Shown here one piece after another: positions 25,742-52,544 of a stretch of DNA of 64,000 nucleotides (position 1 is the stretch's first letter; the number at the start of each line of letters is the position of its first letter). Under the pieces are notes generated by a model that was not told where the DNA came from, did no database searches, and worked only from the letters and a program-made list of their open reading frames with translations. Made by a program: the position numbers and the translations under genes. Source of the stretch: Opitutaceae bacterium (GTDB taxonomy: Bacteria; Verrucomicrobiota; Verrucomicrobiia; Opitutales; Opitutaceae); NCBI GenBank assembly GCA_025360455.1, contig JANYCF010000328.1, positions 4,451-68,450 on the forward strand, read 5' to 3'.

Positions 25742-25755
25742 GGGGTGAGGAGGAA

Positions 25756-28050: not shown

Positions 28051-30254
28051 AACGCCGTTTCTCCGGGAGCAAGTGCGGCGGTTTCGCGAACGAGGGCGAG
28101 ATGGCGCGGCAAGGAAACGCGTTCGTCGTAGCGACTCGTGATGGTTTGGCGGGCGAGATCGGCGCGAGTGGTATTACCGGCGAGGTGGGCGGCCAGCGCT
28201 TGGCGGATGGCTTCAGCCAACACATAGCGATCACCCGGCTCGACCAGCCAGGCATCGCGACCGCTGAGCATTTCCGGGATGCCGTTGACATCGGTGCTGA
28301 CGATGGGCGTGCCAAAGATGGCCGCCTCCAACAGTACGCGCGGTGATGATTCCTCGAAGCTCGTGCAGACCAAGATATCGGCGAGCCGATGAAAGTCATA
28401 GTTCTCGCGCGTTTCCGGGACGAAGCGGACCGTCGAGAGTTTGGCGTCGGCCATCTTGGTTTTCAGGGCGCGGAGGAATTCATCGTCACGCGCGCCGACC
28501 ATCACGAATTCGATTTTTCTCTTCGGGAAGCGGACGCGAAATTCCGGTTCAAGCAACTCGGCCGTCTGAAGAAAGACGTGTTGACCCTTGCGTTCGCAAA
28601 CCGCGCCGAGGTTGAGCAACACGATCGAGTCGGGCGCGAAACCGTGTTTGGCGCGGAGTGAAGCGGTGTCGTGACTACGGCTGAATTGTTGTATCCCTGC
28701 CACGTCGAGCCAACTGGGCAGGACACGGAAATTAGCCCGCTGGTTTTGCGCCGAGCAAACCTGGCGCGAAGCATCGGCGGTGAAGGCGACGCGTTGGGCC
28801 AGAGTGAGTGTTTCCGCCACGACAGGAATCAAGCCGGGCGCTACCAACGGGGCAAATAATCGGGGGATGGGTGTGCTTTCGTGGACGTAGAACAGGGCGG
28901 GTTTGCGAACGCGGTGCGCCAGATGGACGGCCCAAAAGGTTACCACCGTGTTGGCTAGCACCAGATCGACGCCGCTCCAGTCAATGGTGCCGCTCAAGAT
29001 ATTTAGTTGCACATGGAATTCTTCCGCCGTGGTGGCGCGGAGGGCGGGCGCCACATTGAGAACGGTGACGGCCATGCCGGCATTTTCAAACAACGCGCGC
29101 AACGGACCTTCGGTTGGAGATATAACCCGGAGGCTGATGCCAGGTTGGCGCTTGAGATACGAAGCCAGTTCCAGGACGAGGCGGGGTGCGCCTTCGAAAT
29201 TCAGATTATGGGTCACGACCAAAATGCGCAGCGGTTGATCGCGATGGGGCGTGGCACCGGGGGCGGCGGATTTCGGTAGCGGTTTGCCGGTGTAGTTGGC
29301 CCACGCCGCGCGACCGGCCCGGAAAACGCCGGTGGTCGGCAGCCCCAAGCGACTCGCGGCACAACGGAGCGTCCAAACCGCACGGCTAAATTGGCAGACC
29401 GACAATGGGGGCGCGGTGGGCACGGCTCCGATCATCAGGCCGGGTTGGAAACGTTGCGCAAATGCCAGATGCTTCTCGCCGTTGTCGAGGGTGGCGAAAA
29501 TTTTCAACAGGATGGGACGATTTAAGCCGGCGGGCAGATCGACTTTCCCCACAAAGGCGGCGTTCGCGTGTTGGGTGAGTTCGGGGAATTTGCCGATAAT
29601 ATCGGCCCGGGCGTTGCCGTACGCGAGGGGAACTTCGTACAACGGATCCACGATCGCGGTGAGCCGCGTGATCTTCGCGGTGCGGTGGGTCAGCCAACCC
29701 ACCACGGAAAGACGGCAGTATTCGACGCGGCCAATTTGCGTCGGTTCTTCGAGTGCGCCGATGAAAGGCGGGTTGGGAAAGGCATTCAGCGGTTCGGCGT
29801 CCATGGCCGTCACCAGATCATCCGCGATGGAGGCGAGCGTGCGTTCGGGGTGGCGGGCGGCGCGGCGCAGCAGATCGGGGATGAGTGCCGACAGGGAATC
29901 CGCCAACCGAATCCGCGTCGGTGCCGGGGTTGGCTCGGGTGAAGCTTTGATCGAGGTGCGGAAGAATTCGATCCAGCGGCCGGTCAGATCACAGGCTTCC
30001 AGTCGTAGGACGGTGGCGTCGCTTGGTGGTGCGAGCAGAAACGAAAAACCGGAGTAGGGGAGCCCGGCCTCACCGTGTCGGGGCAAGCCGTGCAAACCAA
30101 ACGAAACTTTTTTATCGAGCCACGCGCGCAGGTCGGTGATCGCATTGCCCGACTCCGCCTGGATCGTGCCGGCAATCCAAGTTTGGCCTGCGGGGAAACG
30201 CCAGTCCGGGGGATGATGATCGACGACAAATTTCCAGCCGGCAGGCGGGTTCAT
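28047..30254 (-). CDS. Shared N-terminal module + GT4 glycosyltransferase (paralog)
   Basis: ILVVTHNLNFEGAP, NLGAVCERKGQ and CTSFEESSPRVLLEAA; start MNPPAGWKF at 30254 aligns with the paralog starts. Confidence 0.9.
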   Translation of the reverse strand: MNPPAGWKFVVDHHPPDWRFPAGQTWIAGTIQAESGNAITDLRAWLDKKVSFGLHGLPRHGEAGLPYSGFSFLLAPPSDATVLRLEACDLTGRWIEFFRTSIKASPEPTPAPTRIRLADSLSALIPDLLRRAARHPERTLASIADDLVTAMDAEPLNAFPNPPFIGALEEPTQIGRVEYCRLSVVGWLTHRTAKITRLTAIVDPLYEVPLAYGNARADIIGKFPELTQHANAAFVGKVDLPAGLNRPILLKIFATLDNGEKHLAFAQRFQPGLMIGAVPTAPPLSVCQFSRAVWTLRCAASRLGLPTTGVFRAGRAAWANYTGKPLPKSAAPGATPHRDQPLRILVVTHNLNFEGAPRLVLELASYLKRQPGISLRVISPTEGPLRALFENAGMAVTVLNVAPALRATTAEEFHVQLNILSGTIDWSGVDLVLANTVVTFWAVHLAHRVRKPALFYVHESTPIPRLFAPLVAPGLIPVVAETLTLAQRVAFTADASRQVCSAQNQRANFRVLPSWLDVAGIQQFSRSHDTASLRAKHGFAPDSIVLLNLGAVCERKGQHVFLQTAELLEPEFRVRFPKRKIEFVMVGARDDEFLRALKTKMADAKLSTVRFVPETRENYDFHRLADILVCTSFEESSPRVLLEAAIFGTPIVSTDVNGIPEMLSGRDAWLVEPGDRYVLAEAIRQALAAHLAGNTTRADLARQTITSRYDERVSLPRHLALVRETAALAPGETAL

Positions 30255-30316
30255 GGCTGGATGACGGAAAATGAGGGGAGAGCGCCGGGGCGCGCATAAG
30301 TGGACATGGTTGACTT

Positions 30317-30349
30317 GGTCAAATTGGGCCACCGCCGTGACAGGTCAAC
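30317..30349 (-). promoter_or_regulatory. Conserved upstream motif, copy 1 (putative promoter)
   Basis: GTTGACCTGT-N10-GCCCAATTTGACC; same ends and length as the copy at 32271-32303. Confidence 0.65.
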
Positions 30350-30373
30350 TCTCGGCTGCGGCGAGGATTGGGG

Positions 30374-30427
30374 GTAGCGCAGGCATCCTGCCTGCTGATG
30401 GGGAAGCAGGCATCCTGCCTGCGCTAC
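30374..30427. repeat. REP-like doublet, family A (GTAG foot)
   Basis: GTAGCGCAGGCATCCTGCCTGC...GCAGGCATCCTGCCTGCGCTAC; each arm is itself palindromic. Confidence 0.85.
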
Positions 30428-32202
30428 TTCTGGCGCCGACAGACGATCACATCTTGGTGCTGACCCCAGGCGGCGGCACGAACAGCGATTATTTCCAACT
30501 CTGTCTCACGTTCAATTACTTCGCGAATCCAGCCCGGTTGCGCGATAGAAATGCCGTACCCCGGTGTATCCGTATAATCAACATAGCCGAAACCCTTCGT
30601 CGCGGCGTCATGGCAGAGACGCGCGACATCCGGCGGTGGGAGGCCGTAATCTTTTTCTCCGCTGTGCACAATATCGAGGGCGAGCAAACCGTGCGAAGTG
30701 AAGACCAGTACGCCGTGGGGAGTGAGCCGTTCGTGGAAACGGCGGAGATGCGTGATCCATTGGTCTTGATCGAAGTGGGTCAGCAGCGAGCCGCACCAAA
30801 TGATATCATAGGGTCCGGGTAAGGCGGCCCAGTGGCTGCCATCAAGCGTGGCCTGAACTCCGGTGGCGTTCAGCTGTTGCACGCAAAAATCCACGCCCGG
30901 CCTCTGGGTGTCGCAGACGGAAAGTTTGGCTGCGGGATACGCCGTGCGAAACCAGCGGGCCACTCGGCCAAAACCACTGGGTAAATCTAAAATGGATTCG
31001 ACGCGACCGCCTCCAGCTTGCGCCACGGCCTCCTGTACCAGTATTAATGCCTCCCGGCCGACTGAAAAATACTGGGAGATATCGGGCACACCCATGTCGT
31101 CGGCCGAATCGATGAGGGTGAGTGCCGGCTGTGCGGGCGGGAGCGGGACGGGGTGTCGAGTGAAGTTCTCGTCGGGAGATGGCCAAAAAGTATCAGACCG
31201 GTAGGCCGGACTGGCCGGATTGGCGGCCCAGATTTTCTGGGCCGACCGAAGAAAATTTTGACGGGATAGTCCGTGCCGACCGGCGGAATGAAAGAGAGCC
31301 CAGAGGGCGCGGGCAATTTCCCGGCCGGTGGTCAGGCGGGGAATTTGCCCGCTATCACCGTGGAGCTGCGGAATGAAGCGCCGGGCAAAGACGAGGTGGC
31401 GTTCGCCGTGATCGAGTTCCGCGAAAATTTTAAGCAGGACCGGTGTGGCGAGTCCGACCGGCAGGGCGATTTCTCCAACGAAAGCGGAATGCGGTTGATC
31501 TCTGAGTGAGGGGAAAGCGCCGCTGATATCCGAACGCGCCAAGCCATGCGGCAGGTCGAGTTTCGGCAACGGATCGATGACGGCGGAGAGTCGGGTGATT
31601 TTCGCCGAGGGGTGGGCGAGCCAGCCGGTGATGGGAATACGGCCGTAGCGCAGGCGTCCGATGACGTGCGGTTCTTCGAGGGTGCCGAGAAAGGGGACGT
31701 TGGGATGGGAATCCAGCGGTTCAGCGACGAAGGCAGCCATGAGTTCATCGGCAAGCTCGCTCCAAGTTCGCTGCGGGGTGCGCAACCGTTGCTTTAATAA
31801 AGCGGTCGTGAGTGCGCCCAGTGAGGTGCTGAGGTTCAGTGTGCTGGCGGGTGTTGCGGCCGTGGCCGCCGCAGCAATGGGGGTGCGAAAGAATTCTCGC
31901 CACTGGCCGGTGCGATCCCGTGCCTCCAGACGGAGCAACGTGGCGCGAGGCTGGGGGGAAAGCAGAAAAGAAAATCCCGGGCCGGCGGTGCCGGATTGCC
32001 CCGAATGATTTTCCGTGAACGCGGGGTGGGGCAGACCGAACAGACCAAGGATGACGCGATGATGTAATCGTGCGCGTACATCGGTGATCACCTGCCCGGC
32101 CGCCGGTTGAATCCAACCGGCGATCCAAGAATTTCCTGCGGGGAAATTCCAATTATCCGGATAGATCTCAACCGCGAACTGCGGGCAGGGTGGGGCAATC
32201 AT
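30424..32202 (-). CDS. Shared N-terminal module + class I SAM-dependent methyltransferase
   Basis: ILDLPSGFGRVARWF (motif I), YDIIWCGSLLTH and GVLVFTSHG. Confidence 0.9.
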   Translation of the reverse strand: MIAPPCPQFAVEIYPDNWNFPAGNSWIAGWIQPAAGQVITDVRARLHHRVILGLFGLPHPAFTENHSGQSGTAGPGFSFLLSPQPRATLLRLEARDRTGQWREFFRTPIAAAATAATPASTLNLSTSLGALTTALLKQRLRTPQRTWSELADELMAAFVAEPLDSHPNVPFLGTLEEPHVIGRLRYGRIPITGWLAHPSAKITRLSAVIDPLPKLDLPHGLARSDISGAFPSLRDQPHSAFVGEIALPVGLATPVLLKIFAELDHGERHLVFARRFIPQLHGDSGQIPRLTTGREIARALWALFHSAGRHGLSRQNFLRSAQKIWAANPASPAYRSDTFWPSPDENFTRHPVPLPPAQPALTLIDSADDMGVPDISQYFSVGREALILVQEAVAQAGGGRVESILDLPSGFGRVARWFRTAYPAAKLSVCDTQRPGVDFCVQQLNATGVQATLDGSHWAALPGPYDIIWCGSLLTHFDQDQWITHLRRFHERLTPHGVLVFTSHGLLALDIVHSGEKDYGLPPPDVARLCHDAATKGFGYVDYTDTPGYGISIAQPGWIREVIERETELEIIAVRAAAWGQHQDVIVCRRQK

Positions 32203-32270
32203 GGCCGGTTCGCAGGCTTGTGAGTGAGAGCGGTGGAACGCTTCGGTGCGGGTAAGAAGAAGGACAATCC

Positions 32271-32303
32271 GGTCAAATTGGGCGGCTGACCGAACAGGTC
32301 AAC
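32271..32303 (-). promoter_or_regulatory. Conserved upstream motif, copy 2 (putative promoter)
   Basis: GTTGACCTGT-N10-GCCCAATTTGACC about 70 nt upstream of ATG 32202. Confidence 0.65.
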
Positions 32304-32364
32304 CTTCCGCTGCCGTCGATTTTTCGTGTTCTGGATTTTCAATATACCGCGGGATCGATCGAGC

Positions 32365-32391
32365 GTAGGGCCGGCGCTTGTCGCCGTGCCG
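32365..32391. repeat. Single REP-like arm, family B (GTAGGG foot)
   Basis: GTAGGGCCGGCGCTTGTCGCCGTGCCG, similar to the arm at 42012-42038. Confidence 0.7.
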
Positions 32392-32620
32392 ATGATCTCG
32401 CGAGGGAGGGTTGCTCATCTTAATCAACGAAAGTTAGAAAAACTGCGCAGGGGCGATTTTGTTGATCAGGTGCACTTTCGGATTTGTCGGATGCATCGTT
32501 GGACGCGGGACGCCAGAATCCACGCGGAGTTGGCCAGCTGAATGCTAATCTCTGGGCAGAACCAGTTTTTGGCCACAGAAGCGGCAAAATGTGCCGCTTA
32601 CTAAAATCTAATCTACAACC

Positions 32621-33223
32621 ATGAAACCTATCGGCGAATTGCTCGACGTCCTGACCAAGTCTCAAGCACTGGAACCAATGATTGAGACCACAGGGCGGGC
32701 GCTCGTGGATTGTTTAAAGCGTGGGGGGAAGGCGTTTTCGTGTGGGAATGGCGGGAGTGCCGCCGATGCGCTGCACTTCGCGCAGGAATTGGTCGGGCGC
32801 TACAAAGTGAACCGGCGCGCGTTGCCGGCGATTTGTCTGAATGCGGATGTCACGGCGTTGACCTGCATCGGCAATGACTACGGGTATGATCAGGTTTTTG
32901 CGCGGCAACTTTCGGCCTTTGCCAAACCCGGTGATGTGTTGGTGGGATTTAGCACGAGTGGAAATTCTCCCAATGTACTGGCGACTTTTGCGGTCGCGAA
33001 GGCCTTGAAAGTGACAACGATTTTGCTCGGAGGCAGGGATGGCGGTCAGGCACGGGGCAGGTGTGACTATGAGTTGATCATTCCCTCGCAAAATACCGCG
33101 CGAATTCAGGAGGTGCACACCTTGGTGCTGCATTCCTGGCTCGATTACGTGGATAAGGAATTCGATCCGGCCACCGCCAAATCAACGAATTGGATGCAGC
33201 AAGTGGAGATGGCTTTGGTTTAA
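32621..33223 (+). CDS. gmhA: Phosphoheptose isomerase
   Basis: CGNGGSAADALHFAQEL, GNDYGYDQVFARQ, STSGNSPN and TARIQEVH. Confidence 0.96.
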   Translation: MKPIGELLDVLTKSQALEPMIETTGRALVDCLKRGGKAFSCGNGGSAADALHFAQELVGRYKVNRRALPAICLNADVTALTCIGNDYGYDQVFARQLSAFAKPGDVLVGFSTSGNSPNVLATFAVAKALKVTTILLGGRDGGQARGRCDYELIIPSQNTARIQEVHTLVLHSWLDYVDKEFDPATAKSTNWMQQVEMALV

Positions 33224-33235
33224 CAAGCTACGAGC

Positions 33236-33808
33236 ATGTCCGAAAAAGCTCTCTTTCTGGACCGCGACGGAACGCTGATCGTGAAGCACGATTATTTGTC
33301 TGATCCTGCGCTGGTGGAATTAATGCCGGGGGTGCGGGAGGCGCTCCATCGCTTTATTGAGCGAGGGTACCGGCTGTTTATGTTCACCAATCAAAGTGGC
33401 GTCGGGCGTGGCATGTTTTCCCTCGAGAAAGTTCAGAGTTGCAATGCGCGGATGCTGGAGTTGCTGCAGTTGCCGTCACCGGGATTCGCGGAGATGTGTA
33501 TTGCGACGGAGTCACCGGCGATGCCCACCGTCTATCGCAAACCTTCACCGCGGTTTATTTTGGAAATGATCGCGAAATATTCACTGATACCGCAGAAAAC
33601 ATGGATGGTCGGCGACATGCCTTGTGATATTCAAGCGGGTTTGAATGCCCGGGTGCGCACGGCTTGGATTCAGCAGGAGCGGGTTTCGATGGTCCCCGAT
33701 GGAGTGTGGCACGGGAAAAACTTTTTAGAGTTTGAGACCCATGTTTTGAAATTAAACGAGTTCGGTTCGCGCAGTCCGTTTTTGCAGGTGGCGGGTCTGC
33801 ACGGTTAG
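33236..33808 (+). CDS. gmhB: D-glycero-D-manno-heptose bisphosphate phosphatase (HAD-IIIA)
   Basis: LFLDRDGTL, FTNQSGVGRG, RKPSP and MVGD..DIQAG. Confidence 0.9.
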   Translation: MSEKALFLDRDGTLIVKHDYLSDPALVELMPGVREALHRFIERGYRLFMFTNQSGVGRGMFSLEKVQSCNARMLELLQLPSPGFAEMCIATESPAMPTVYRKPSPRFILEMIAKYSLIPQKTWMVGDMPCDIQAGLNARVRTAWIQQERVSMVPDGVWHGKNFLEFETHVLKLNEFGSRSPFLQVAGLHG

Positions 33809-34149
33809 TGGGTGTGAAGATCGGATGAGATGTCGGGTATTCCTTGTCATCCTCACGGCAAATTCTGCCGTGAAGACTGCGGTAATTATTGTTGAGACGA
33901 ATTGACCTTGTTGTCGTCGGTTCAGAAAAATATAAAGCATGATAGCTCAGGGAAATGAGGAAACGTCAGGTCAGGCTGGCCCGGATTCTGCAAAACAGTG
34001 AGCGCATGTCATTTCCCTGTATGCTACCTCTTGGTTTATATGACCGATTCATCCGGCTGGATTGGGTCGAGGGGCGGCAAATATCTGGAGTAGCCAAGCG
34101 GTATCCAAGCAATCGAACACTCATTTTCTGTGTTATGGCATATCAACTA

Positions 34150-34229
34150 AAGGTGGAGCGCGTTGCCCTCAACGCGCTGGGCTGTGGTCGCTCCAAAACA
34201 AGCGCATTGAGGGCAATGCGCTCCACCTT
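34150..34229. repeat. REP-like inverted repeat, family C (GTGG foot)
   Basis: AAGGTGGAGCGCGTTGCCCTCAACGCGCT...AGCGCATTGAGGGCAATGCGCTCCACCTT, 29-nt arms. Confidence 0.85.
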
Positions 34230-34264
34230 CCAATGCATTGCTAAGGCTCCGTTCGACTTTATTT

Positions 34265-35005
34265 ATGAATAAACTTTCTCAAATTACGGCGGCAATTTTG
34301 GCGGGTGGCGCAGGAACGCGTCTGCGTTCGGTCGTGGCGGATCGGCCCAAGGTACTCGCCCTGCTGGGAGGCAAACCTTTCATCTCCTATTTGCTCGACC
34401 GGTTGGCGGCGCAAGGCGTAGGGAAAGTGGTATTGTGTACGGGCTACATGGGTGAGCAGATGCAGGATCAATTGGGCGAGAGTTACCAAGGTATGCAATT
34501 ACTCTACTCGCGCGAAGAGCAACCGCTCGGCACCGGAGGCGCGATTATTCAGGCCTTACCGTTGCTTACTTCCGATACGATTTTGGTGCTCAATGGCGAT
34601 TCTTACTGCGAAACGGTGCTGCCTGCTTCGTTGGAATGGCATCAGGATCGTCAGGCGCGGGCGACGGTGGTGCTGGCTCATGTCGATGAGGGCGCGCGCT
34701 ACGGACAGGTCCAAATTAATTCCGAGGGACGCATCGAACGTTTTTGCGAAAAAAATCCGACGTACATTGGCGGGGGCTGGATCAACAGCGGTGTGTATTG
34801 GTTTGAGCGCGAGGTCTTGGCCGGTTTGCCTGCCGGTCGGGCACTCTCGCTGGAGAAAGAGGTGCTCGGTGCTTGGAGTGGAGACGGTCTTTATGGGTAC
34901 CGGGAGTATGGACGATTTTTAGATATCGGCGTGCCGGAAGATCACGCCCGGGCCGAACGCTTTTTGACGGTTGTGCATGAACCCATTGCGGGATTAGTCG
35001 TGTAG
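34265..35005 (+). CDS. hddC: D-glycero-alpha-D-manno-heptose-1-phosphate guanylyltransferase (HddC/GmhD-like nucleotidyltransferase)
   Basis: ILAGGAGTRLRSVVADRPK, EEQPLGTGGA, LNGDS, INSGVY and FLDIGVPED; context with gmhA and gmhB. Confidence 0.82.
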   Translation: MNKLSQITAAILAGGAGTRLRSVVADRPKVLALLGGKPFISYLLDRLAAQGVGKVVLCTGYMGEQMQDQLGESYQGMQLLYSREEQPLGTGGAIIQALPLLTSDTILVLNGDSYCETVLPASLEWHQDRQARATVVLAHVDEGARYGQVQINSEGRIERFCEKNPTYIGGGWINSGVYWFEREVLAGLPAGRALSLEKEVLGAWSGDGLYGYREYGRFLDIGVPEDHARAERFLTVVHEPIAGLVV

Positions 35006-35007
35006 TC

Positions 35008-36288
35008 ATGTCCACGAGCTTCACCATTATCGGGGGAGGATTGATTGGTTTAAGTACGGCGTTGGAGGTCAAGTTGCTCGCGCCCGGGTCCGAGGTGCGC
35101 TTGCTGGAAAAGGAAGCGACGGTCGGACGACATCAGAGTACGCATAACAGCGGCGTATTGCATGCCGGGCTGTATTATAAACCGGGCTCGTTGAAAGCGC
35201 GGCTGGCGGTGAAGGGCATCCGCCGCATGATTGAATTTTGCCAACAGCATGGCGTCGCTCACGAAATTTGCGGGAAGCTGGTGGTCGCAACCACGCCCGA
35301 TGAAATTACGCGGCTGCATACGCTGCAGGAACGCGGGGAGAAGAATGGTTTGCGCGGATTGCGCTGGCTGGAGCAGGGCGAATTGCGGGAGATCGAACCG
35401 CATGCGGCCGGGCTGGCCGCAGTCCACGTGCCGGAGGAGGGGATCGTGAACTATCAGGGCGTATGCACCGCCTTGGAAAGTGAGCTCAGCGCGCGCGGCG
35501 TGATGATCACAACGAATGCCGCCTTGCGTCAGGCCGAGCGGCGCGGTTCCGAGTGGCACTTGCAGACGGCCGCAGGAGATTTTTCGACAGGCTATATTAT
35601 TAATTGTGCCGGATTGCACAGTGATTGGGTGGCGGCCTCAGCCGGCGAAGAGCGGGAGGCACGGATTCTGCCTTTCCGCGGGGAGTATTATAAATTGCGC
35701 GCGTCGGCCCAACATCTCGTACGGAATCTGATCTATCCGGTGCCGGATCCGTCATTTCCGTTTTTAGGAGTGCATTTCACGCGGTTGATCGAAGGCGGCG
35801 TGGAAGCCGGTCCGAACGCGGTGCTGGCGATGGCCCGCGAGGGTTATTCGAAATGGCGCCTGAATCCCCGTGATCTGTTCGATGCTTTGTCCTACGGAGG
35901 ATTGTGGAAATTTATGCGGCAGCATCGCTCGATGGCGTGGGATGAAGTGGTGCGTTCTTTCAGCAAGGCCAAGTTCTGTGCGTCGTTGCAGCGTTTGGTA
36001 CCGGCGGTGCAGATTACGGATTTGGAGCCGGGCATCACCGGGGTGCGGGCGCAGGCGATGTTGCCCGATGGCACGCTCATGCAGGATTTCCATTTTGTGG
36101 AGCGCGCGGGTGCCCTCCATGTGATCAATGCGCCCAGCCCTGGTGCGACCGCTTGTCTTGCTATTGGTGAATTCGTCGCCCGTCGGGCTTTGGCATCGAT
36201 TGGCCTCATCACGCCGCAGACCGATGGCCCGTTGGAATCGAGCGGGATGGGCCGAGGCAAGGAGGACAGGGAAATATATTCCCCTTGA
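35008..36288 (+). CDS. lhgO: L-2-hydroxyglutarate oxidase/dehydrogenase (FAD)
   Basis: IIGGGLIGL, HQSTHNSGVLHAGLYYKPGSLKA, PFRGEY, YPVPDPSFPFLGVHFT, GVRAQA and NAPSPGATA. Confidence 0.92.
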   Translation: MSTSFTIIGGGLIGLSTALEVKLLAPGSEVRLLEKEATVGRHQSTHNSGVLHAGLYYKPGSLKARLAVKGIRRMIEFCQQHGVAHEICGKLVVATTPDEITRLHTLQERGEKNGLRGLRWLEQGELREIEPHAAGLAAVHVPEEGIVNYQGVCTALESELSARGVMITTNAALRQAERRGSEWHLQTAAGDFSTGYIINCAGLHSDWVAASAGEEREARILPFRGEYYKLRASAQHLVRNLIYPVPDPSFPFLGVHFTRLIEGGVEAGPNAVLAMAREGYSKWRLNPRDLFDALSYGGLWKFMRQHRSMAWDEVVRSFSKAKFCASLQRLVPAVQITDLEPGITGVRAQAMLPDGTLMQDFHFVERAGALHVINAPSPGATACLAIGEFVARRALASIGLITPQTDGPLESSGMGRGKEDREIYSP

Positions 36289-36495
36289 GTGGCCTGAGCA
36301 GACTTCGGTTCGAGCGGAGAGGCGGGCAGCTCATGTTTAAGCACTCTATCGTATTATAAAAGATAGAGATGCAGGCGTCGGTCGAATCTGGCGTGAATCC
36401 TGCAAAATACCGGCATGCCCCCGTCTATTCGTTTTCATTACGAACGTCTGGCCGTGCCTTTCTTTGCTGCGGTGCCGTTTTCTTCTTAATAAATT

Positions 36496-37440
36496 ATGTC
36501 CTCCTCAACCACTGTTCTGATCACCGGCGTCGCCGGCTATCTGGGATCAATTGTCTCGGATCACTTTTTAAAAGCCGGGCATCGAGTTATCGGAGTTGAT
36601 AATTTGAGTTTCGGTTCAGCTGCGCTGAATCATCTGTGCGAGCAGCCGGCCTTCGAGTTTGTCCGCGAAGATGCCCGCAATGAGCAGGCGATGGCGCCCT
36701 TGGTGAAGAAAGCCGATGTGATCATCCCCCTGGCGGCCGTCGTCGGCATGCCCGCGTGTCAGCGTGATCCCCTCCTGGCGACTTCACTGAATCTTGATGC
36801 GGTGCGCATGATCAATCGGCTCCGTTCCCCGGGCCAGCTGATCGTTTATCCCAACACGAACAGCGGTTACGGAATCAAGTCGGGCAATTCTTTCTGCACC
36901 GAGGATACCCCGTTGGAGCCCATTTCCGTTTACGGCACAACCAAGTGTCAGGCTGAGATCGAACTGTTGAATTCCAAAAACACCATCACGCTGCGGCTCG
37001 CGACCGTGTTCGGCATGTCGCCGCGGATGCGGATCGATCTGCTGGTGAATCATTTTGTTTATACCGCCGTCACCGATGGCTACATGGTAATTTTTGAAAA
37101 GGACTTTAAGCGCAATTTCGTCCATGTGCGCGATGTCGCGGACTGCATGCTGCACTGCGTGGCGAATGCTTCCAAGATGATTGGCCGGCCCTACAATGTG
37201 GGGTTGGATACGGCGAATCTTTCCAAGGAGGAATTGGCGATGAAGGTGAAGGAGTTCGTGCCGAATTTTTATGTACACTTTTCCGAAGTCGGCACTGATC
37301 CGGATAAGCGCAATTACATCGTCTCCAACCAGCGACTGCGGGAGGCGGGATTTGAAGCCAGGCGCTCACTGGAAACGGGCATTCCCGAGCTAATCAAAGG
37401 CTATAAAATGTTTGGCCGCTCCCCGTTGAAGAACGTGTGA
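36496..37440 (+). CDS. Extended SDR, Cj1427/WcaG-like GDP-D-glycero-D-manno-heptose C4-dehydrogenase
   Basis: ADVIIPLAAVVGMPAC, YPNTNSGYG, PISVYGTTK, RLATVFGMSPRMRIDLLVN and DPDKRNYIVSN match my recollection of C. jejuni Cj1427; GDP-heptose gene context. Confidence 0.8.
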   Translation: MSSSTTVLITGVAGYLGSIVSDHFLKAGHRVIGVDNLSFGSAALNHLCEQPAFEFVREDARNEQAMAPLVKKADVIIPLAAVVGMPACQRDPLLATSLNLDAVRMINRLRSPGQLIVYPNTNSGYGIKSGNSFCTEDTPLEPISVYGTTKCQAEIELLNSKNTITLRLATVFGMSPRMRIDLLVNHFVYTAVTDGYMVIFEKDFKRNFVHVRDVADCMLHCVANASKMIGRPYNVGLDTANLSKEELAMKVKEFVPNFYVHFSEVGTDPDKRNYIVSNQRLREAGFEARRSLETGIPELIKGYKMFGRSPLKNV

Positions 37441-37523
37441 GACGAAGCCCGACGAATAATTTCCACTCCTGCTATGAAGGCTCGGCGATAGGGCGGTGTT
37501 CCCACAAATCAAAAATATATTCT

Positions 37524-39458
37524 ATGAACTCCACGCCTGATGCTTTACTGACTCTTTTGGCTGATCCGCTCGATGCGAATGGCGCTCATCGTCCTGAGCT
37601 GACGCAGCTTTCCGTCCTCGAGCAGTTGCGTCGTGCGCTCGCGAATTATTTGGAAACGCCGGGTGAGCGCGAGATGTGGATGAGATTTCTTTTGGCGCGT
37701 CGGAGCGCCAGCGAGTTGATCGCCCGGTTTTCTCGCAAGGAGACCGATGCTCCTCACGTGCATGAAGGGCATGAACTGATCCGGGAAATGGCGAAATCGG
37801 GCGGGCACGATCATACGGCTCAACCCGACGATTTAGCGCTGGCGCAAGGGTTCGTTCGCAAAGGTTGGCCGGGAGTATTGGCCGCGATGTTGCTCGTGCC
37901 GGCCTGGCAATGGCCGGACGCGCCATTGCTGATGGAGGTGCCGGATTGGTTGCGGGCTGATTATGTGCGCTGGTTGTTTACGGCACCACAAAACTTTTCT
38001 TCGCCCGGCCAGGCGGAGGCCTTTGGCGCATTCACCCTCAAACGATTGGAAGAACTTGTGCGCTGGCTGAACCGCGCCCCCAACGGGACGGAAGAGAAAA
38101 AGGTGCTGGGTGCCTATGCCAGTCACTGTTCCTTGCGACCGGTTTGCCAAGGATCGGAAGCGCTGCGCCGTCACGCAGAATTGCGCGGCCAACTGCTCGG
38201 GCGCGCGATGGGGAAACGGGATGATCATTATCGGGCCCCCTTTAAACCTCGAGCTGGCCGCCGGCTACGCATCGGTATTATCAATCGTAATTTTGAGCCG
38301 CAGCTGGAGACGTACGCCACCTTGCCCCTTTTTGAACAGCTCGATCCGGAACGCTTCGAGGTGATGCTGTTTACGTACGTGAGTGGTTTTAGTCGGGTGG
38401 AAGAGCATTGCCGGCAAAAATCAGCCGACCTGCAAGTGCTGCCGGTTGATCTTCCAGGTCAGCTTTCGCTGTTACGAAAGGCGGCGCTCGATGTGGCCGT
38501 CTTCAGTGCGGATCTGACGGCGGAGTGCAATGTCGTGACGCGGCTCGCCCTGCATCGCATCGCACCGCTTCAGGTCGCCAGCAATGCTTCGTGTCTTACG
38601 ACCGGTTTGCCCGAGATTGATCTCTATTTGACGGGTGACGGAGCGATGACCGAAGGTCTCGCCGCTCAATTCACGGAACGTCTGGGACTCCTGCCGGGGC
38701 CGACGCACACTTTTAATTTCGAGGCTGATCGCGAGGAAGTGCAAGTTGGCTGTACGCGGGCTGATTTCGGTCTGCCCGCAGAGGCCGTCGTTTTTGTTTC
38801 CACGGCTAATTTTCAAAAAATAATTCCTGAAGTACAGCAGGTTTGGGCCCGGCTGTTGGCGGCGGTGCCGGGTTCATATTTGCTCGTGCATCCCTTTGCG
38901 CCACGCTTGCCGTCGAATCAGACGATCAACCATTTCTATGCGGCGTTTGAGGAGAATATGCAACGGGCAGGCGTAGATACTGCCCGCTTGGTCGTTTCCA
39001 CCGTGGATTTCCCCTCGCGCAACGAGGTCAGGGGATTACTCGGGTTGGGTGATGTGTATCTCGATACTTTTCCGTTTGGCGGAGTGGATTCATTGATGGA
39101 TGCGCTGGAACTCGGTTTGCCCATCGTTGCGATGGAAGAGCGGGCGTTGCGCTCGCGGACGGGCGCTTCCTTGCTGCGGGTGATTGGTATGGGCGAGTTG
39201 ATCGCGAGCACGGCTGCGGCGTACGCAGCGATTGCGATCAAGGTCGCGAAAGATTCTGCCTATCGGACGAGTTGCCGAGAACGGATCTGCCCCGGGATGG
39301 GACAGCCGCCCGCTTTTCTTGACACGAAGGCGACGAGTGAGGCCTTTGGTACCTTGCTGGGAATGGCGTACGATGAACTGGCGATCAAAGGACGTGAATT
39401 GTTCCGCGCGAATTTGCAGCCGTTGCGCATCACCGGGATGTCGTCGGCTGGGAGGTAG
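37524..39458 (+). CDS. GT41 (OGT/SPINDLY/HMW1C-like) glycosyltransferase, paralog 1
   Basis: RLRIGIINRNF, RIAPLQV, FVSTANFQKIIP and DVYLDTFPFGGVDSLMDALELGLPIV. Confidence 0.85.
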   Translation: MNSTPDALLTLLADPLDANGAHRPELTQLSVLEQLRRALANYLETPGEREMWMRFLLARRSASELIARFSRKETDAPHVHEGHELIREMAKSGGHDHTAQPDDLALAQGFVRKGWPGVLAAMLLVPAWQWPDAPLLMEVPDWLRADYVRWLFTAPQNFSSPGQAEAFGAFTLKRLEELVRWLNRAPNGTEEKKVLGAYASHCSLRPVCQGSEALRRHAELRGQLLGRAMGKRDDHYRAPFKPRAGRRLRIGIINRNFEPQLETYATLPLFEQLDPERFEVMLFTYVSGFSRVEEHCRQKSADLQVLPVDLPGQLSLLRKAALDVAVFSADLTAECNVVTRLALHRIAPLQVASNASCLTTGLPEIDLYLTGDGAMTEGLAAQFTERLGLLPGPTHTFNFEADREEVQVGCTRADFGLPAEAVVFVSTANFQKIIPEVQQVWARLLAAVPGSYLLVHPFAPRLPSNQTINHFYAAFEENMQRAGVDTARLVVSTVDFPSRNEVRGLLGLGDVYLDTFPFGGVDSLMDALELGLPIVAMEERALRSRTGASLLRVIGMGELIASTAAAYAAIAIKVAKDSAYRTSCRERICPGMGQPPAFLDTKATSEAFGTLLGMAYDELAIKGRELFRANLQPLRITGMSSAGR

Positions 39459-39598: not shown

Positions 39599-41938
39599 AT
39601 GTCTTCACTCTATTCACCCCAAGCGCTCATGTCGGCCGATCCCTTTGCCTTATCCCAGCCGGAAAATAGCCGGAGCCCACTGCCGCTGGAAGAAACCGGC
39701 GCGCTGTTTGATCAACTGCGCAACGGATTGACCCAGTATTTGGAGCAACCAGCCAGTGCAGAGTTATGGAGCAAATTCACCGTTGCGCGACGCGCCGCCA
39801 GCGAGGCGATCACCCGTTTTCCGAGAAAGGATACGCAAGCACTCTTGGTTTACGACACGCGTCAGTTGATGCAGGAAATTTCCCGATCGGGGGTGCATGA
39901 TCGCAGCCTTGAAGCGGAAGATTTAACACTGGCCGATGGCTTGGTCAAAAAAGGGTGGTCGGGTTTGTTGGGCGCGATGTTGCTGACTCCGGCCTGGCAA
40001 TGGTCCTCGGCTCCACTTTTGGTGGAAGTGCCGGAATGGTTGTTGGCGGATTATGTCGGCTGGCTTTTTGCGGCGCCCCAGGGATTCAGTGAGATCGGAC
40101 ACGCGGAGGCCTATGCCGCGCATACGTTGCGCCGCTTGGAAGAGTTGGTGCGCTGGATGAAACGGGGTCCGGGCATCAGTGCTGAGACCGAAGTGCTCGG
40201 TGCTTATGTGACCCATGCCTCCGTGATTCCTTTGTATTTTTGTACCGGTGATCTCCGTCGCCACGCCGAGTTGCGCGGCCTGTTGTATACGCAGGCGATC
40301 AGCCTGCCGGGAGATCACTATGAAGCCGATGCGGTCTCGCGTGAAGGCCGGCGTCTGCGCGTGGGTTTTGTGAACCGGCATTTTAGCTCGCAGACGGAAA
40401 CGTACACGACCTTGCCCACGTTCGAGCAACTCGACCCCGAGCGTTTTGAGGTGATCCTCTACAGCTATAAATCGGGGAACAGCAACCTGGAGGAATATTG
40501 CCGGTCGAAGGCGGGGGATTATTTTGTGCTGCCCGACGATATCGAGGGACAGCTCTCGATGCTGCGCGGGGCGGGACTGGATGCGGTGGTCTTTGGGACC
40601 AACGTGACGGCGGTGTGCAACGAGGTCACGCGCTTGGCGCTGCACCGCGTCGCGCCCCTGCAGGTGGTCAATAATTCTTCCTGTATTACTTCCGGTCTGC
40701 CGGAGGTGGATCTGTATGTGTCAGGCACCCTCACCGAGTCCTTGGGCGCATCGGCGCAATTCAGCGAGCGCCTGGGATTGCTGCCGGGCCCGACTCACGC
40801 TTTCAATTATGAAGCAGACCGACAGGAGTCGCAAAATTCGGGTACGCGGGCCGATTGTGGCATTCCGGACGACGCGCTGCTGTTCGTGTCCGCGGCGAAT
40901 TATTTTAAAATCATCCCGGAGATGCAGCAGCAGTGGGCCAAATTACTCGCGGCTGTGCCGGGTTCATATTTGTTGGTGCATCCGTTCAATCCGAATTGGA
41001 CTTCAGAATATCCGATCAAACGTTTTCAAGCGGAGTTTGTCCGTGTCTTGGCCAGTCATGGCGTGGACCGGGCGCGGTTGAAGATTTCGACCACCTCGTT
41101 CCCCTCGCGAACAGAGGTGAAGCAACTTTTGGGGTTGGGCGATGTGTACCTCGATACCTTCCCGTTTGGCGGCGTGAATTCCCTGGTGGATCCGCTGGAA
41201 CTCGGGTTGCCCGTGGTTACCTGGGATGGAGAAACGATGCGTTCTCGCATGGGAGGCGCGCTGCTGCGCTCGCTGGAATTGCCTGAATTGATCGCCAGCA
41301 ATGCCGAGACTTACCAAGCTATCGCCGTGAAACTGGCCACCGATGCCACTGAGCGCGCTGCGGTGCGGGAGCGATTGCAGACCCGCATGGAACGGATGCC
41401 GATTTTTCTTGATGCGTTGGCCGCCAGCGAGGCGATGGGCGATTTGTTGGAAGTGGCTTTTGACGAATTGACCCTGGTCGGACGCAAGGCGTTTCGGGCG
41501 AACTTAGTTCCGCTTCAGGCGGCACTCACGTCGGCCAATGCCCGCGACAAGGCTTCCAGTGATCCGGTGGCGCAGGCGAGGGCCGTGTTGCGATCAGCTC
41601 CGGCGGATGCGACGGCTCGTCATGTCCTGGGTTGCGCCCTGCATGCGGCTGGTCGGTCAAGTCGGGCCGTGTGTTACTTGTTGGCGGCCATTCAAAAAGT
41701 GGAGAACAATCCTGATCTTTGGTTGGATCTGGCGCAGGCGTTGCGAGCGGACGGTCGAACCAGTGAGGCGATTCAGGCGCTCGAAGCCAGTTTGCGGATG
41801 GACCAGGATCAATTGGAAGGATGGTTGATGTTGGCCGAGCTCGCGCAGGCGATCGGAGTCACCGACCTAGCGCGCGAAGCAGCGGGCGTGGCCCAGAGAT
41901 TGGCCCCGGATGACACGCGCGCGAATGTTTACTTATAA
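39599..41938 (+). CDS. GT41 glycosyltransferase, paralog 2, with C-terminal TPRs
   Basis: RLRVGFVNRHF, FVSAANYFKIIP and DVYLDTFPFGGVNSLVDPLELGLPVV; TPR-like tail ARHVLGCALHAAG...LWLDLAQALRADG. Confidence 0.87.
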   Translation: MSSLYSPQALMSADPFALSQPENSRSPLPLEETGALFDQLRNGLTQYLEQPASAELWSKFTVARRAASEAITRFPRKDTQALLVYDTRQLMQEISRSGVHDRSLEAEDLTLADGLVKKGWSGLLGAMLLTPAWQWSSAPLLVEVPEWLLADYVGWLFAAPQGFSEIGHAEAYAAHTLRRLEELVRWMKRGPGISAETEVLGAYVTHASVIPLYFCTGDLRRHAELRGLLYTQAISLPGDHYEADAVSREGRRLRVGFVNRHFSSQTETYTTLPTFEQLDPERFEVILYSYKSGNSNLEEYCRSKAGDYFVLPDDIEGQLSMLRGAGLDAVVFGTNVTAVCNEVTRLALHRVAPLQVVNNSSCITSGLPEVDLYVSGTLTESLGASAQFSERLGLLPGPTHAFNYEADRQESQNSGTRADCGIPDDALLFVSAANYFKIIPEMQQQWAKLLAAVPGSYLLVHPFNPNWTSEYPIKRFQAEFVRVLASHGVDRARLKISTTSFPSRTEVKQLLGLGDVYLDTFPFGGVNSLVDPLELGLPVVTWDGETMRSRMGGALLRSLELPELIASNAETYQAIAVKLATDATERAAVRERLQTRMERMPIFLDALAASEAMGDLLEVAFDELTLVGRKAFRANLVPLQAALTSANARDKASSDPVAQARAVLRSAPADATARHVLGCALHAAGRSSRAVCYLLAAIQKVENNPDLWLDLAQALRADGRTSEAIQALEASLRMDQDQLEGWLMLAELAQAIGVTDLAREAAGVAQRLAPDDTRANVYL

Positions 41939-42316: not shown

Positions 42317-43495
42317 GTGAGCACCGACCATTTAGTTGCCGAGCCCGTGGCCGCACCGAGCGCAAAAGCGCAGCGGGAGGCTTTAATGGCACAAGCGCGG
42401 GCGGCGTTGGTGAAAGTATATGAAGTGCCCAATCTCACCTACGCGCAACGCCTCGCTCACGCGAAAAGCCTCAACTCGGCTCTGGCGAAATTGGAATATC
42501 AAAACGGAACGACGCAACTGACTTGCCGACCGGCGATGATCGAATTGCCCGTGGCCGGGAAGTGCAACTTGCGCTGTACGATGTGCGGTTTATCGCACGG
42601 TGATCCCGGTTTTCCGAATTGGACTTTGGAGGAGGTGAAGAAATTCGAACCGTTCTTCCGCTTTGCCCGTTCCGTCAATCCGACCGGTGCCGGCGAGCCA
42701 TTGGCGGTTCGAGATTTTTTTTCCATGCTGGAACTGTTCAGCGGTTACGGGCTGACCACCGGCTTTTATACCAATGCCACTTTGCTGACACCGGATAAGG
42801 TGGAGAGTGTGATCCGGTTGGGTATCGCGCAGGTGAATATCTCCATTGACGGAGCCACGGCGGCAACTTTTGAAAACATCCGGCATCATGCCAAATTTGC
42901 TACAGTGGTGGGAAATACCCGGCGCTTAGTGGCCCGTCGCCGCGAGCTTGGGCGAAACATTCCCCGTCTCCAAATCGCCATGGTGCTCATGCGGGAGAAT
43001 ATGCACGAATTGCCCGACTTGGTTCGCTTGGCGGCCGATATCGGGGCCGACAGTGTCTACGTTGGTTTTGTCAGCGCTATTGTCCCCGAAAATATTTGTG
43101 AGCGGGAGCCCATCCGCACAAATGCGATGCTGCGCGAAGCGCGTCGGGTGGCGGAAGCATTGAAGCTGCCGATTTTGTGTCCGGATTATTTACCCGAGCA
43201 TGCCACGGCGGAAGCGGCGACGGCGCGGGAGGCGGTGGTTCCGCTTGCTCCCGCCAGTGGGTGTATGTGCAGCCATCCTTGGCAACAATTGGTCGTATGG
43301 AACGATGGAGGCGTGAGTCCTTGCTGCCGTATTCGCGATCAGGTCGATGGGGAGAAATTTGGCAACATTCACGAAACGCCACCGGAGCAACTCTGGAACA
43401 GTCCCGGCTTTGTTCGGTTGCGGGAGCGGCTTGCTTCGAGAAATCCGCCGATGGACTGTCAGATTTGTCCACTACGAACGGCGACGCTGCATTGA
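42317..43495 (+). CDS. Radical SAM protein with a SPASM/twitch domain
   Basis: CNLRCTMC (CxxxCxxC), GAGEPL, SIDGA and CSHPWQQLVVWNDGGVSPCC...CQIC. Confidence 0.93.
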   Translation: MSTDHLVAEPVAAPSAKAQREALMAQARAALVKVYEVPNLTYAQRLAHAKSLNSALAKLEYQNGTTQLTCRPAMIELPVAGKCNLRCTMCGLSHGDPGFPNWTLEEVKKFEPFFRFARSVNPTGAGEPLAVRDFFSMLELFSGYGLTTGFYTNATLLTPDKVESVIRLGIAQVNISIDGATAATFENIRHHAKFATVVGNTRRLVARRRELGRNIPRLQIAMVLMRENMHELPDLVRLAADIGADSVYVGFVSAIVPENICEREPIRTNAMLREARRVAEALKLPILCPDYLPEHATAEAATAREAVVPLAPASGCMCSHPWQQLVVWNDGGVSPCCRIRDQVDGEKFGNIHETPPEQLWNSPGFVRLRERLASRNPPMDCQICPLRTATLH

Positions 43496-51290: not shown

Positions 51291-52532
51291 TCAGACCACG
51301 CGCATCTCCGGCAGTGGGACGATGAAGTGGCCACCTTGAGTCAAGTATGCCTGATTGCGCGCGATGATCATGTCGGCGAACCGCCAGGCGAGAATGAGTA
51401 AGTAATCTGGTTTGCGTTCGGCCAACGCGGTAGATGCTACAATGGGAATGTGATCGCCGGGGCTGTAGCGGTGCTGACGCACGGGATTATCGTCGACAAT
51501 GAAGTCCATGACACCGCCGAGGCCAAAGTGGTAGGTCAACACGGTCCCGGTGGCCGAGGCACCATAGCCTGCGATGGTTTTCCCCTCCGTTTTTAGCTTG
51601 GTGAGCAAATCGTTCAGACGAACCTTCGCCGCGTCGATCCGGTTGCCCCACGCGGTGTAGGTTTCCAGGCGATATAGACCGTACTCGTTCTCGAGGAGCA
51701 GGAGACGCGGGACCTCGGGTGATTCGACGCGCGGGCCGCCAGCCAGTTGGGCGTAGCAGCGGATCGTGCCTCCCTTGCTGGCAGTGCGCTCGACGTCGAT
51801 CAGCTGGAGGCCATGGCGCTTGAGGAAAATCTGGAGCGGTTTGACGGAGTGATGGCTGAGGTGTTCGTGGTAGATGAAGTCGAACACCATGTTTTCAATC
51901 ATATCAAGCAGGTACGATACTTCGAAAACAAACACACCGTTGGGTGCGAGGAGGGCGCGGATGCCGTCCGCCATGTCACCGAGGGTATCCGAGTGGGCGA
52001 AGACGTTGTTGGCGGTCACAAGTCCAAAGTCGCCGCGGGTGCGGCGGAGTTCCGTGCCGACCTGGCTGTTGAAAAAGCACGGCAGGGTTTCGATGCCTGC
52101 GGCGGTGGCGGAGGTGGCGACCTCGCTGGCCGGATCTACGCCGAGCACACTCAGGCCCTGGGCCTTGAGAAAAGAGAGCAGGGTGCCGTCGTTGCTCCCG
52201 ATATCGAGGGCGCGCGACCCGGGGGCGGGTTTCACCTTGCTGACGACATGGGTGGCGTAGTCGCGAAAATAATTCACCAGGCCCGGTGAGCTGGCGGTCG
52301 TGTAGATGTAATCCCCGAAGAGCAGTTTCGGCGACACCACGTCCAGCAGCTGGCCGTGGCCGCATGTTTCGCAAAGGTAGAGATTAATTGGAAAACGCGG
52401 TTGAGCGACGGAACGTTTTTCCTCCGTGATGAACGCATCGACTGGTGGACAATCCGTGAGCTTCAGGGCGAGCGGTACTTTAGGGCTGTCGCAAAGACGG
52501 CAGGTGTGACGGTGGTAAACGAGGGATTCCAT
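51291..52532 (-). CDS. NDP-sugar C-methyltransferase (TcaB9/KijD1/TylC3-like, Zn-binding)
   Basis: CRLC...CETC Zn site, LDIGSNDG, IYHEH and GYGASA. Confidence 0.9.
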   Translation of the reverse strand: MESLVYHRHTCRLCDSPKVPLALKLTDCPPVDAFITEEKRSVAQPRFPINLYLCETCGHGQLLDVVSPKLLFGDYIYTTASSPGLVNYFRDYATHVVSKVKPAPGSRALDIGSNDGTLLSFLKAQGLSVLGVDPASEVATSATAAGIETLPCFFNSQVGTELRRTRGDFGLVTANNVFAHSDTLGDMADGIRALLAPNGVFVFEVSYLLDMIENMVFDFIYHEHLSHHSVKPLQIFLKRHGLQLIDVERTASKGGTIRCYAQLAGGPRVESPEVPRLLLLENEYGLYRLETYTAWGNRIDAAKVRLNDLLTKLKTEGKTIAGYGASATGTVLTYHFGLGGVMDFIVDDNPVRQHRYSPGDHIPIVASTALAERKPDYLLILAWRFADMIIARNQAYLTQGGHFIVPLPEMRVV

Positions 52533-52544
52533 GGGAGAGTCGGG

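Follow-up and report, generated by a model that had tools for sequence, protein, structure and literature searches.

An L-2-hydroxyglutarate oxidase gene in a GDP-heptose operon of an Opitutaceae bacterium and its probable coupling to a Cj1427-like dehydrogenase through 2-oxoglutarate

The window analyzed here, a 64,000-nucleotide (nt) stretch from an Opitutaceae bacterium (GenBank assembly GCA_025360455.1, contig JANYCF010000328.1, positions 4,451 to 68,450 of the forward strand), carries a glycan island in which lhgO, a gene for an L-2-hydroxyglutarate oxidase/dehydrogenase dependent on flavin adenine dinucleotide (FAD), stands among genes for GDP-heptose synthesis, followed by a gene for an extended short-chain dehydrogenase/reductase (SDR) that resembles Cj1427 of Campylobacter jejuni. 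The relationship between these two gene products is the subject of this report. Between 32.6 and 41.9 kb the plus strand carries, in order, gmhA, a gmhB-like gene, hddC, lhgO, the extended SDR gene, and two paralogous genes of glycosyltransferase family GT41. The hddC product (34265..35005, +), the heptose-1-phosphate guanylyltransferase that makes GDP-heptose, has an NTP_transferase domain and scored 145 bits against the HddC model NF049965. The hddC stop codon, TAG at 35003-35005, is followed by the bases TC and then by the lhgO start codon, ATG at 35008, and this 2-nt junction indicates co-translation. lhgO (35008..36288, +; 426 amino acids [aa]; NF008726, with similarity to PDB 8W75) is followed by a 207-nt spacer (36289..36495) and by the SDR gene (36496..37440, +; 314 aa), whose product is a putative GDP-D-glycero-D-manno-heptose C4-dehydrogenase with similarity to PDB 6VO6. 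An earlier note made from the letters of the window had placed lhgO 2 nt after hddC with the SDR gene next, and the coordinates bear this out.

LhgO scored 507.4 bits against the NCBIfam equivalog NF008726 ("L-2-hydroxyglutarate oxidase"; cut-off, 299), with a match extending over model positions 2-388 of 389, and 303 bits against the Drosophila enzyme dmL2HGDH (PDB 8W75). In dmL2HGDH, residues S88, H92, Y289, L299, H302, and R393 contact 2-oxoglutarate (PMC10726252). Alignment mapped these six contacts onto S48, H52, Y243, L253, H256, and R347 of LhgO; all are conserved in the window protein and in every LhgO that we found in heptose loci. The naming of the gene product as an L-2-hydroxyglutarate enzyme in the earlier note was thus upheld. 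Members of the L2HGDH family are specific for the L isomer and inactive on D-2-hydroxyglutarate (D-2-HG) (PMC10726252), and eukaryotic L2HGDH delivers its electrons to quinones (bioRxiv 10.64898/2026.07.16.738879). The window protein also has a C-terminal tail of 33 residues past the end of the family model.

The SDR is 49% identical to Cj1427 (PDB 6VO6/6VO8) across residues 4-306 (331.6 bits, E 4e-98), the next-best solved structure reaching 65.5 bits, and its SDR domain was recognized by PF01370 at 99 bits. Residues G11, G14, and G17 of the GxxGxxG motif, together with T121, S123, Y146, and K150, are invariant between the two proteins. Four motifs that the earlier note had matched to Cj1427 were all located in both proteins by alignment, namely, VIIPLAAVVGMPAC, YPNTNSGYG, RLATVFGMSPRMRIDLLVN, and DPDKRNY. 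The genetic context is likewise that of GDP-heptose, with gmhA, gmhB, and hddC upstream. In an alignment with GDP-mannose 4,6-dehydratase (GMD), the position of the catalytic Glu, as assigned in the E. coli enzyme, is occupied by Ser123 in the window SDR and by Ser also in Cj1427 and its relatives, the aligned stretch reading T-N-S in the SDR versus S-S-E in GMD. Because the SDR has no dehydratase Glu, a 4-keto product released undehydrated would leave reduced nicotinamide adenine dinucleotide (NADH) behind on the enzyme, and an external oxidant would be required. Cj1427 was isolated with tightly bound NADH that is not displaced by NAD+, and alpha-ketoglutarate (2-oxoglutarate) oxidizes this bound NADH, itself becoming L-2-hydroxyglutarate (L-2-HG) (PMC10680097, a 2023 review from the Raushel laboratory). 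This agrees with the earlier note's account of the enzyme and gives the isomer as L. By homology, we infer that the window SDR would bind NADH tightly, oxidize C4 of GDP-heptose, and reduce 2-oxoglutarate to L-2-HG; the enantiomer predicted for a Cj1427-type SDR matches the specificity of LhgO.

Neighborhoods were compared first from the side of the SDR. The forward set comprised 80 loci, one per GTDB species (1.26 Mb in all), with SDRs 64-83% identical to that of the window; the search query combined the window SDR with Cj1427 and five relatives from the databases in one alignment, and the loci were scored by tblastn together with clustering of open reading frames (ORFs), leaving out the antisense artifacts that naive ORF clustering produced in GC-rich loci. 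An lhgO gene of the L2HGDH type was present on the same strand within the heptose operon in 6 of the 80 loci (L020, L021, L030, L043, L060, and L025). The arrangement is lhgO-SDR-hddC-gmhB-gmhA in Longimicrobium (L020) and SDR-hddC-...-hddA-...-DegT-rSAM-lhgO-gmhA/B in the Planctomycete type (L021, L030, and L043; rSAM, radical S-adenosylmethionine enzyme). Candidatus Kuenenia (L060) has an operon lhgO as well, and the lhgO of a member of the Bdellovibrionales (L025) is more distant (33-35% identity) and keeps all of the contact residues. Under a chance model of one or two lhgO genes per 3-5 Mb genome, 0.25-0.84 such loci would be expected (Poisson probability of at least 6, 3e-7 to 2e-4); treating the Planctomycete loci, which share nearly the same arrangement, as a single case gives a probability of 1e-4 to 1e-2 for at least 4. 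Core genes of the forward loci included hddC beside the SDR gene (about 69 of the 80), hddA (48), DegT-like genes (26), B12-radical-SAM genes (26), subunits of thiamine pyrophosphate (TPP)-dependent E1 enzymes (17-20), gmhA and gmhB (about 20 each), and a C-methyltransferase gene (8).

The reverse set consisted of the 80 metagenomic loci whose LhgO was closest to that of the window (46-68% identity), many of them on contigs of merely 1-6 kb. Three of these loci join lhgO to a Cj1427-like gene: L099 reads lhgO-SDR-hddC-gmhB-hddA, with an SDR at 70% identity; L114 reads SDR-lhgO-hddC, with an SDR scoring 380 bits against Cj1427; and in L105 lhgO is followed by a shortened (truncated) Cj1427-like gene. 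gmhA adjoins lhgO in L106 and L112. Once antisense artifacts were removed, the commonest neighbors of LhgO were DegT-family genes (8 loci), SDR genes (8), and RmlC-like epimerase genes (7), and genes for GDP-mannose dehydratase, GT2 or GT4 glycosyltransferases, or exosortases adjoined it in other loci. Sugar-nucleotide or glycan surroundings were seen in at least 21 of the 80, and the loci labeled "other," a label based on a limited query set, may conceal more. In a neighbor-joining tree the glycan-linked LhgOs were spread over several clades, all in the half of the tree nearest the window, with none in a distant clade that adjoins modABC. The enrichment in adjacency between lhgO and Cj1427-like genes that the earlier note had proposed to look for is therefore found in both directions (6 of 80 versus 0.25-0.84 expected in the forward set; L099, L105, and L114 in the reverse set). 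In a separate reverse locus (L087, 7651-10027), a Gfo/Idh/MocA gene lies 25 nt upstream of LhgO, its product falling near levoglucosan and scyllo-inositol dehydrogenases. We considered it as an analogue of WbpB, the Pseudomonas aeruginosa enzyme discussed below, and set it aside: its best structures were sugar dehydrogenases of the 4H3V and 6A3F type, and WbpB scored 45.7 bits. It could, at a stretch, be another dehydrogenase linked to 2-oxoglutarate.

The closest named relatives of both the SDR and LhgO are proteins of Opitutae, Opitutaceae, and Nibricoccus, and the surroundings of these relatives bear on the function of the island. Together with the confinement of the region to rock and sediment metagenomes, these affinities make the source probably an uncultured member of the Opitutales. 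Loci L163 and L164 (SDR, 89% identity; LhgO, 82%) begin with a minus-strand methyltransferase gene followed by gmhA, gmhB, an ORF, hddC, and lhgO and continue with an extra SDR gene (354 aa in L163, at the place equivalent to the 207-nt spacer), the Cj1427-like SDR gene, hddA, transketolase halves, and more; the window gmhA is 89% identical to the syntenic gene of L163. L166 (LhgO, 84%) has hddC-lhgO-SDR-GT41-GT41-hddA-E1, which is the order of the window. The hddC-lhgO junction is conserved in L163, L164, and L166, with LhgO identities of 82-84%. In the cultured species Nibricoccus aquaticus (complete genome CP023344), lhgO lies within a flagellin/heptose island that begins with fliD, three flagellin genes, a GT2-TPR gene, a TPR-GT41 gene, an ORF, and lhgO and continues with a GT41 gene (51% identity to that of the window), an ORF, hddA, a Cj1427-like SDR gene (54%; 14202-15134 in L168), hddC, a C-methyltransferase gene, and an SDR gene. 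In L162 and L165, the heptose genes come directly after tandem flagellin genes, and lhgO does not occur within 10 kb. A separate observation concerns the GT41 homologues of Nibricoccus and related contigs (L162, L165, and L168), which adjoin two to four tandem flagellin genes and fliD/fliS. Because the heptose and GT41 genes of the relatives adjoin flagellin genes, the island most likely serves to glycosylate protein, namely flagellin, and the same context suggests that the GT41 pair of the window encodes flagellin glycosyltransferases. Neither a flagellin gene nor fliD was found in the window, so the glycosylation target proposed here is taken from the relatives alone. In one Nibricoccus sp. 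locus (L167, 9709-11040), a group II intron reverse transcriptase gene is located directly downstream of lhgO, between it and a GT41 gene, and is flanked on both sides by ORFs of identical length (163 aa).

We consider it likely that the SDR and LhgO are functionally coupled as a shuttle of 2-oxoglutarate and L-2-HG in a GDP-heptose modification operon, a reading already put forward in the earlier note and supported by the co-occurrence seen from both sides and by the matching chirality predicted for the two enzymes. In the proposed cycle, the SDR would keep its nicotinamide cofactor bound, and its NAD+ form would oxidize C4 of GDP-heptose to the 4-keto sugar; 2-oxoglutarate would then reoxidize the trapped NADH and become L-2-HG, which LhgO, made from the same message as hddC, would convert back to 2-oxoglutarate while its FAD hands the electrons on to a quinone or, possibly, O2. 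Overall, GDP-heptose plus acceptor would give GDP-4-keto-heptose plus reduced acceptor, with 2-oxoglutarate acting catalytically. The C4 oxidation step would thereby become effectively irreversible, and L-2-HG, a likely product inhibitor as well as a general inhibitor of 2-oxoglutarate enzymes, would be kept from accumulating. Both the acceptor that LhgO uses and the advantage of the shuttle to the cell are predicted. Because D-2-HG inhibits WbpB in the precedent with the D isomer, product inhibition suggests itself, by analogy, as the selective pressure for recruitment of lhgO. The 4-keto-heptose may then be tailored by the C-methyltransferase (51291-52532), the WbuC-type cupin (53347-54414), and SDRs (52545-53354 and 61210-62619), possibly with the involvement of reductases, before the two GT41 transferases probably put the modified heptose onto protein, which would be flagellin in the relatives.

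Several points weigh against this coupling. The spacer of 207 nt parts lhgO from the SDR gene, and both NADH retention and 2-oxoglutarate use by the SDR are extrapolated from a homologue at 49% identity. The region was present in four metagenome runs, from rock and sediment, all of DNA and none of RNA. The background used for the enrichment was analytic rather than a matched control family. The capsule locus of C. jejuni is not known to contain lhgO. Linkage of lhgO to the SDR gene is frequent, not obligatory: 74 of the 80 Cj1427-like loci have no lhgO within 10 kb, the close Opitutales relatives L162 and L165 with their heptose genes alone among them, and thus the partnership must be optional, or lhgO must be supplied elsewhere in the genome. 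LhgO phylogeny, moreover, roughly tracks the organisms, and the lineage's only lhgO might therefore just reside in the island. The loci without linked lhgO, together with the Opitutae, Opitutaceae, and Nibricoccus affiliation of the nearest named LhgO relatives, which suggests vertical inheritance, speak for lhgO being an ordinary housekeeping gene that resides in the glycan island by coincidence, has no link to the SDR, and serves, for example, lysine/glutarate catabolism or the repair of L-2-HG formed by malate or lactate dehydrogenases. We regard such a coincidence as improbable, since the linkage recurs in at least four gene orders across Gemmatimonadota, Planctomycetota, Bdellovibrionota, and Verrucomicrobiota, six linked loci compare with fewer than one expected, and the 2-nt junction with hddC points to co-translation. 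Furthermore, no csiD, gabT, or glutarate context was seen adjoining the 80 closest LhgO relatives, where sugar-nucleotide genes predominate.

Alternatively, LhgO could serve some other enzyme of the island, the SDR being an ordinary NAD+-exchanging dehydrogenase or 4-epimerase; the clients envisaged, for which LhgO would balance 2-oxoglutarate or L-2-HG, are DegT-type aminotransferases, TPP-dependent enzymes, and radical-SAM enzymes. DegT-like, E1/transketolase, and radical-SAM genes are indeed frequent in these loci, and a DegT gene adjoins LhgO in L108, L109, L145, and L148. However, none of these enzyme classes is known to produce L-2-HG, aminotransferases yielding 2-oxoglutarate instead, and Cj1427 is the sole enzyme of a type found in these clusters that has a documented L-2-HG product. 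In addition, the window has no DegT gene beside lhgO, L169 has LhgO and no DegT gene, and LhgO immediately adjoins the Cj1427-like SDR in L020, L099, L105, and L114, and we therefore think this explanation quite unlikely. The versatility of the DAO-family fold and the 33-residue tail outside the family model would allow LhgO to act by now on a different compound that belongs to glycan synthesis, for instance some other 2-hydroxy acid or a hydroxy acid attached to sugar as a decoration. This is very hard to credit given that all residues contacting C1, C2, and C5 of 2-oxoglutarate in dmL2HGDH, the Arg for the distal carboxylate included, are unchanged in the window protein and in all six copies from heptose loci, and that LhgO far exceeds the cut-off of the equivalog model.

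Coupling of an NADH-holding SDR to LhgO may extend beyond heptoses. In six reverse loci (L088, L100, L110, L111, L115, and L122), LhgO directly precedes a 332-aa SDR that shares about 29% identity with that of the window; among solved structures its best matches were TunA (79 bits) and, over the full length, Cj1427 (72 bits). In five of the six (not L088), a glucose-1-phosphate-cytidylyltransferase-like gene is located just upstream of LhgO (TIGR02623, 277 bits, slightly below the cut-off). An RmlC-type 3,5-epimerase gene and a second SDR gene (reductase) follow in most of the six loci, and a DegT-family gene intervenes in L100, L110, and L122; the cassette spans 1505-7494 in L100. Four database relatives of the cassette SDR were sampled (L169-L172, 79-86% identity): two (L169 and L172) have the order NTP-transferase, DAO/LhgO, SDR, (ORF), RmlC-like, and SDR, and two (L170 and L171) have the identical cassette minus LhgO. 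Where the dehydratases have Glu, the cassette SDR likewise carries Ser. A motif, SPxxRxDL, was tried as a signature uniting the Cj1427-like and L100-type SDRs and was dropped, GMD having a similar ESPRRG. Because no 4,6-dehydratase was found within the cassette and the RmlC-like enzyme needs a 4-keto substrate, we infer that the cassette is a hexose counterpart of the HddC-Cj1427-Cj1430-Cj1428 pathway, with LhgO beside the enzyme that would be left with NADH. More tentatively, and with perhaps slightly less than an even chance of being right, adjacency to LhgO could mark a broader, so far unrecognized class of "NADH-locked" C4-dehydrogenases of nucleoside diphosphate (NDP) sugars that use 2-oxoglutarate and L-2-HG as a private shuttle to the respiratory chain. 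That class would consist of the GDP-heptose enzymes and of the cassette, which is widespread in Verrucomicrobiae and Acidobacteria, the latter yielding epimerized hexoses that retain the 6-hydroxy group. If so, lhgO linkage would predict ping-pong sugar dehydrogenases genome-wide and would provide independent in vivo evidence for 2-oxoglutarate as their physiological oxidant.

Family assignments of the remaining genes are as follows. gmhA (32621..33223, +), with which the heptose operon opens, encodes a sedoheptulose-7-phosphate isomerase with an SIS_2 domain (TIGR00441, 198.8 bits), and the gmhB-like gene (33236..33808, +) encodes a HAD-IIIA heptose-1,7-bisphosphate phosphatase (TIGR01662 and TIGR01656 above their cut-offs; PRK08942 GmhB, 88 bits). 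The true start of hddC is probably the ATG at 34265 (246 aa) rather than the TTG at 34238; the ATG is also the start predicted in Logan contig L001, which is identical. A scan of 32150-37600 for promoters and terminators gave counts not above those of shuffled controls and was therefore uninformative on operon boundaries. Downstream of the SDR gene are the first GT41-family gene (37437..39458, +; PF13844; alternative start at about 37524) and the second (39599..41938, +; PF13844 plus TPR families, the TPR repeats being C terminal). The tandem pair share 57% identity, and the second is 51.5% identical to the gene directly downstream of lhgO in N. aquaticus. An NDP-sugar C-methyltransferase gene (51291..52532, -; PF08484, PF08421, and PF13489) lies farther along, and homologues of it recur in Cj1427-like loci, including that of N. 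aquaticus (L168).

Other features of the heptose region are recorded here as side observations. The 456-nt gap between gmhB and hddC contains an inverted repeat (34150..34229) with 29-nt arms, 93% complementary, and a 22-nt loop. A diverged second copy of this palindrome occurs at about 26950-27027, inside a 764-aa GT4 ORF (25756-28050, minus strand); zero matches would be expected by chance, and a REP-like element, a regulatory hairpin, and a small mobile element are candidates. hddA, encoding a GHMP kinase, is present in all close relatives and in 48 of the 80 related loci yet is missing from the window, where tblastn of the 64 kb gave none; in L166 hddA sits after the two GT41 genes, a place taken in the window by a radical-SAM/SPASM gene (42317-43495). 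A minus-strand gene at 62172-63788 encodes a 538-aa protein with the domains of HldE in reversed order, an adenylyltransferase-like N-terminal domain and a C-terminal domain resembling PfkB-type heptose-7-phosphate kinases, both scoring well under their family cut-offs. This protein could be the missing heptose kinase or part of a separate route of the ADP-heptose type.

Elsewhere in the window, four consecutive minus-strand genes (21860-32202) encode a 592-aa methyltransferase, two GT4 proteins of about 760 aa, and a 1,307-aa GT2+GT4 protein, all of which have at the N terminus a homologous module of about 330-370 aa; the module has no family match and is 33-57% identical to the N terminus of the L163 methyltransferase. 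The island continues on the minus strand at 51291-61188, where the genes encode the C-methyltransferase, an SDR, a WbuC-type cupin in tandem form, three methyltransferases of small size, a 550-aa protein without a family, a transketolase split into halves (58347-60145), and an alcohol dehydrogenase that depends on Zn. Such split pairs, of transketolase or E1, are found again in further Cj1427-like loci, a hint that the heptose may be branched or extended. The region from 10001 to 16000 is low in GC content (46-51% versus about 59% elsewhere). Four ORFs in a row here (10615-13331) match no family, and a secretin gene comes next (13328-15070); the stretch may be a module for a pilus or for secretion that was gained by horizontal transfer.

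The dependence of Cj1427 on 2-oxoglutarate was reportedly discovered in vitro, and the presence of operon lhgO genes in several phyla provides independent evolutionary evidence that the 2-oxoglutarate reaction takes place in cells. The linkage also suggests that the L-2-HG by-product needs to be recycled. In the literature that we found, the physiological oxidant of Cj1427 and the fate of L-2-HG are not addressed, and the fate of L-2-HG in C. jejuni is not described in PMC10680097. N. aquaticus, being cultured and fully sequenced, offers a test organism, and the pair of enzymes could provide a practical enzymatic route to 4-keto-heptoses with catalytic amounts of 2-oxoglutarate.

Among known systems, the window SDR is most like Cj1427 itself, an extended SDR aligned over its full length at 49% identity with the same motifs, the same Thr/Tyr/Lys, no dehydratase Glu, and adjoining GDP-heptose genes. 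The two systems differ in that the window glycan is probably protein linked, by way of GT41, whereas that of C. jejuni is capsular, and in their downstream tailoring genes. On the side of the oxidase, LhgO of E. coli and Pseudomonas (YgaF; csiD-lhgO) and animal L2HGDH belong to the same family and have the same substrate residues as the window LhgO. In those systems L-2-HG arises from the glutarate hydroxylase CsiD or from side reactions of enzymes, whereas in the window it would come from a sugar-nucleotide dehydrogenase. Full-text literature searches returned no description of a pairing of Cj1427 with LhgO through the L isomer or of LhgO within a glycan operon. The earlier note knew of no account of such a coupling, and this holds for the L-isomer pair; it does not hold for the principle, which has been published for an analogue with the D isomer, the WbpB and D2HGDH pair (PMC8651671). 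A further precedent, cited in that paper, is bacterial L-serine synthesis, where SerA and D2HGDH drive a dehydrogenation that is unfavorable or limited by its cofactor by reduction of 2-oxoglutarate and FAD-linked reoxidation of 2-HG; as described there, that pair belongs to central amino acid metabolism and involves the D isomer and no sugar nucleotide. The WbpB pair is closer. WbpB of P. aeruginosa has tightly bound NADH and reduces 2-oxoglutarate to D-2-HG, which D2HGDH (PA0317) recycles, and a D2HGDH mutant makes less O antigen, with D-2-HG inhibiting WbpB (PMC8651671, Nat Commun 2021). Its likeness to the pair proposed here lies in an NDP-sugar dehydrogenase with bound NADH, 2-oxoglutarate as oxidant, and recycling of 2-HG. 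In P. aeruginosa, however, the D isomer connects a C3-dehydrogenase of the Gfo/Idh/MocA fold to a D2HGDH of the PCMH fold, and the genes are unlinked, whereas in the window the L isomer would connect a C4-dehydrogenase of the SDR fold to an LhgO of the DAO/GR2 fold, and the recycling gene lies inside the glycan operon. With the window pair, the principle published for WbpB and D-2-HG would come to include the L isomer and another enzyme fold, and the recycling step would be built into the operon.

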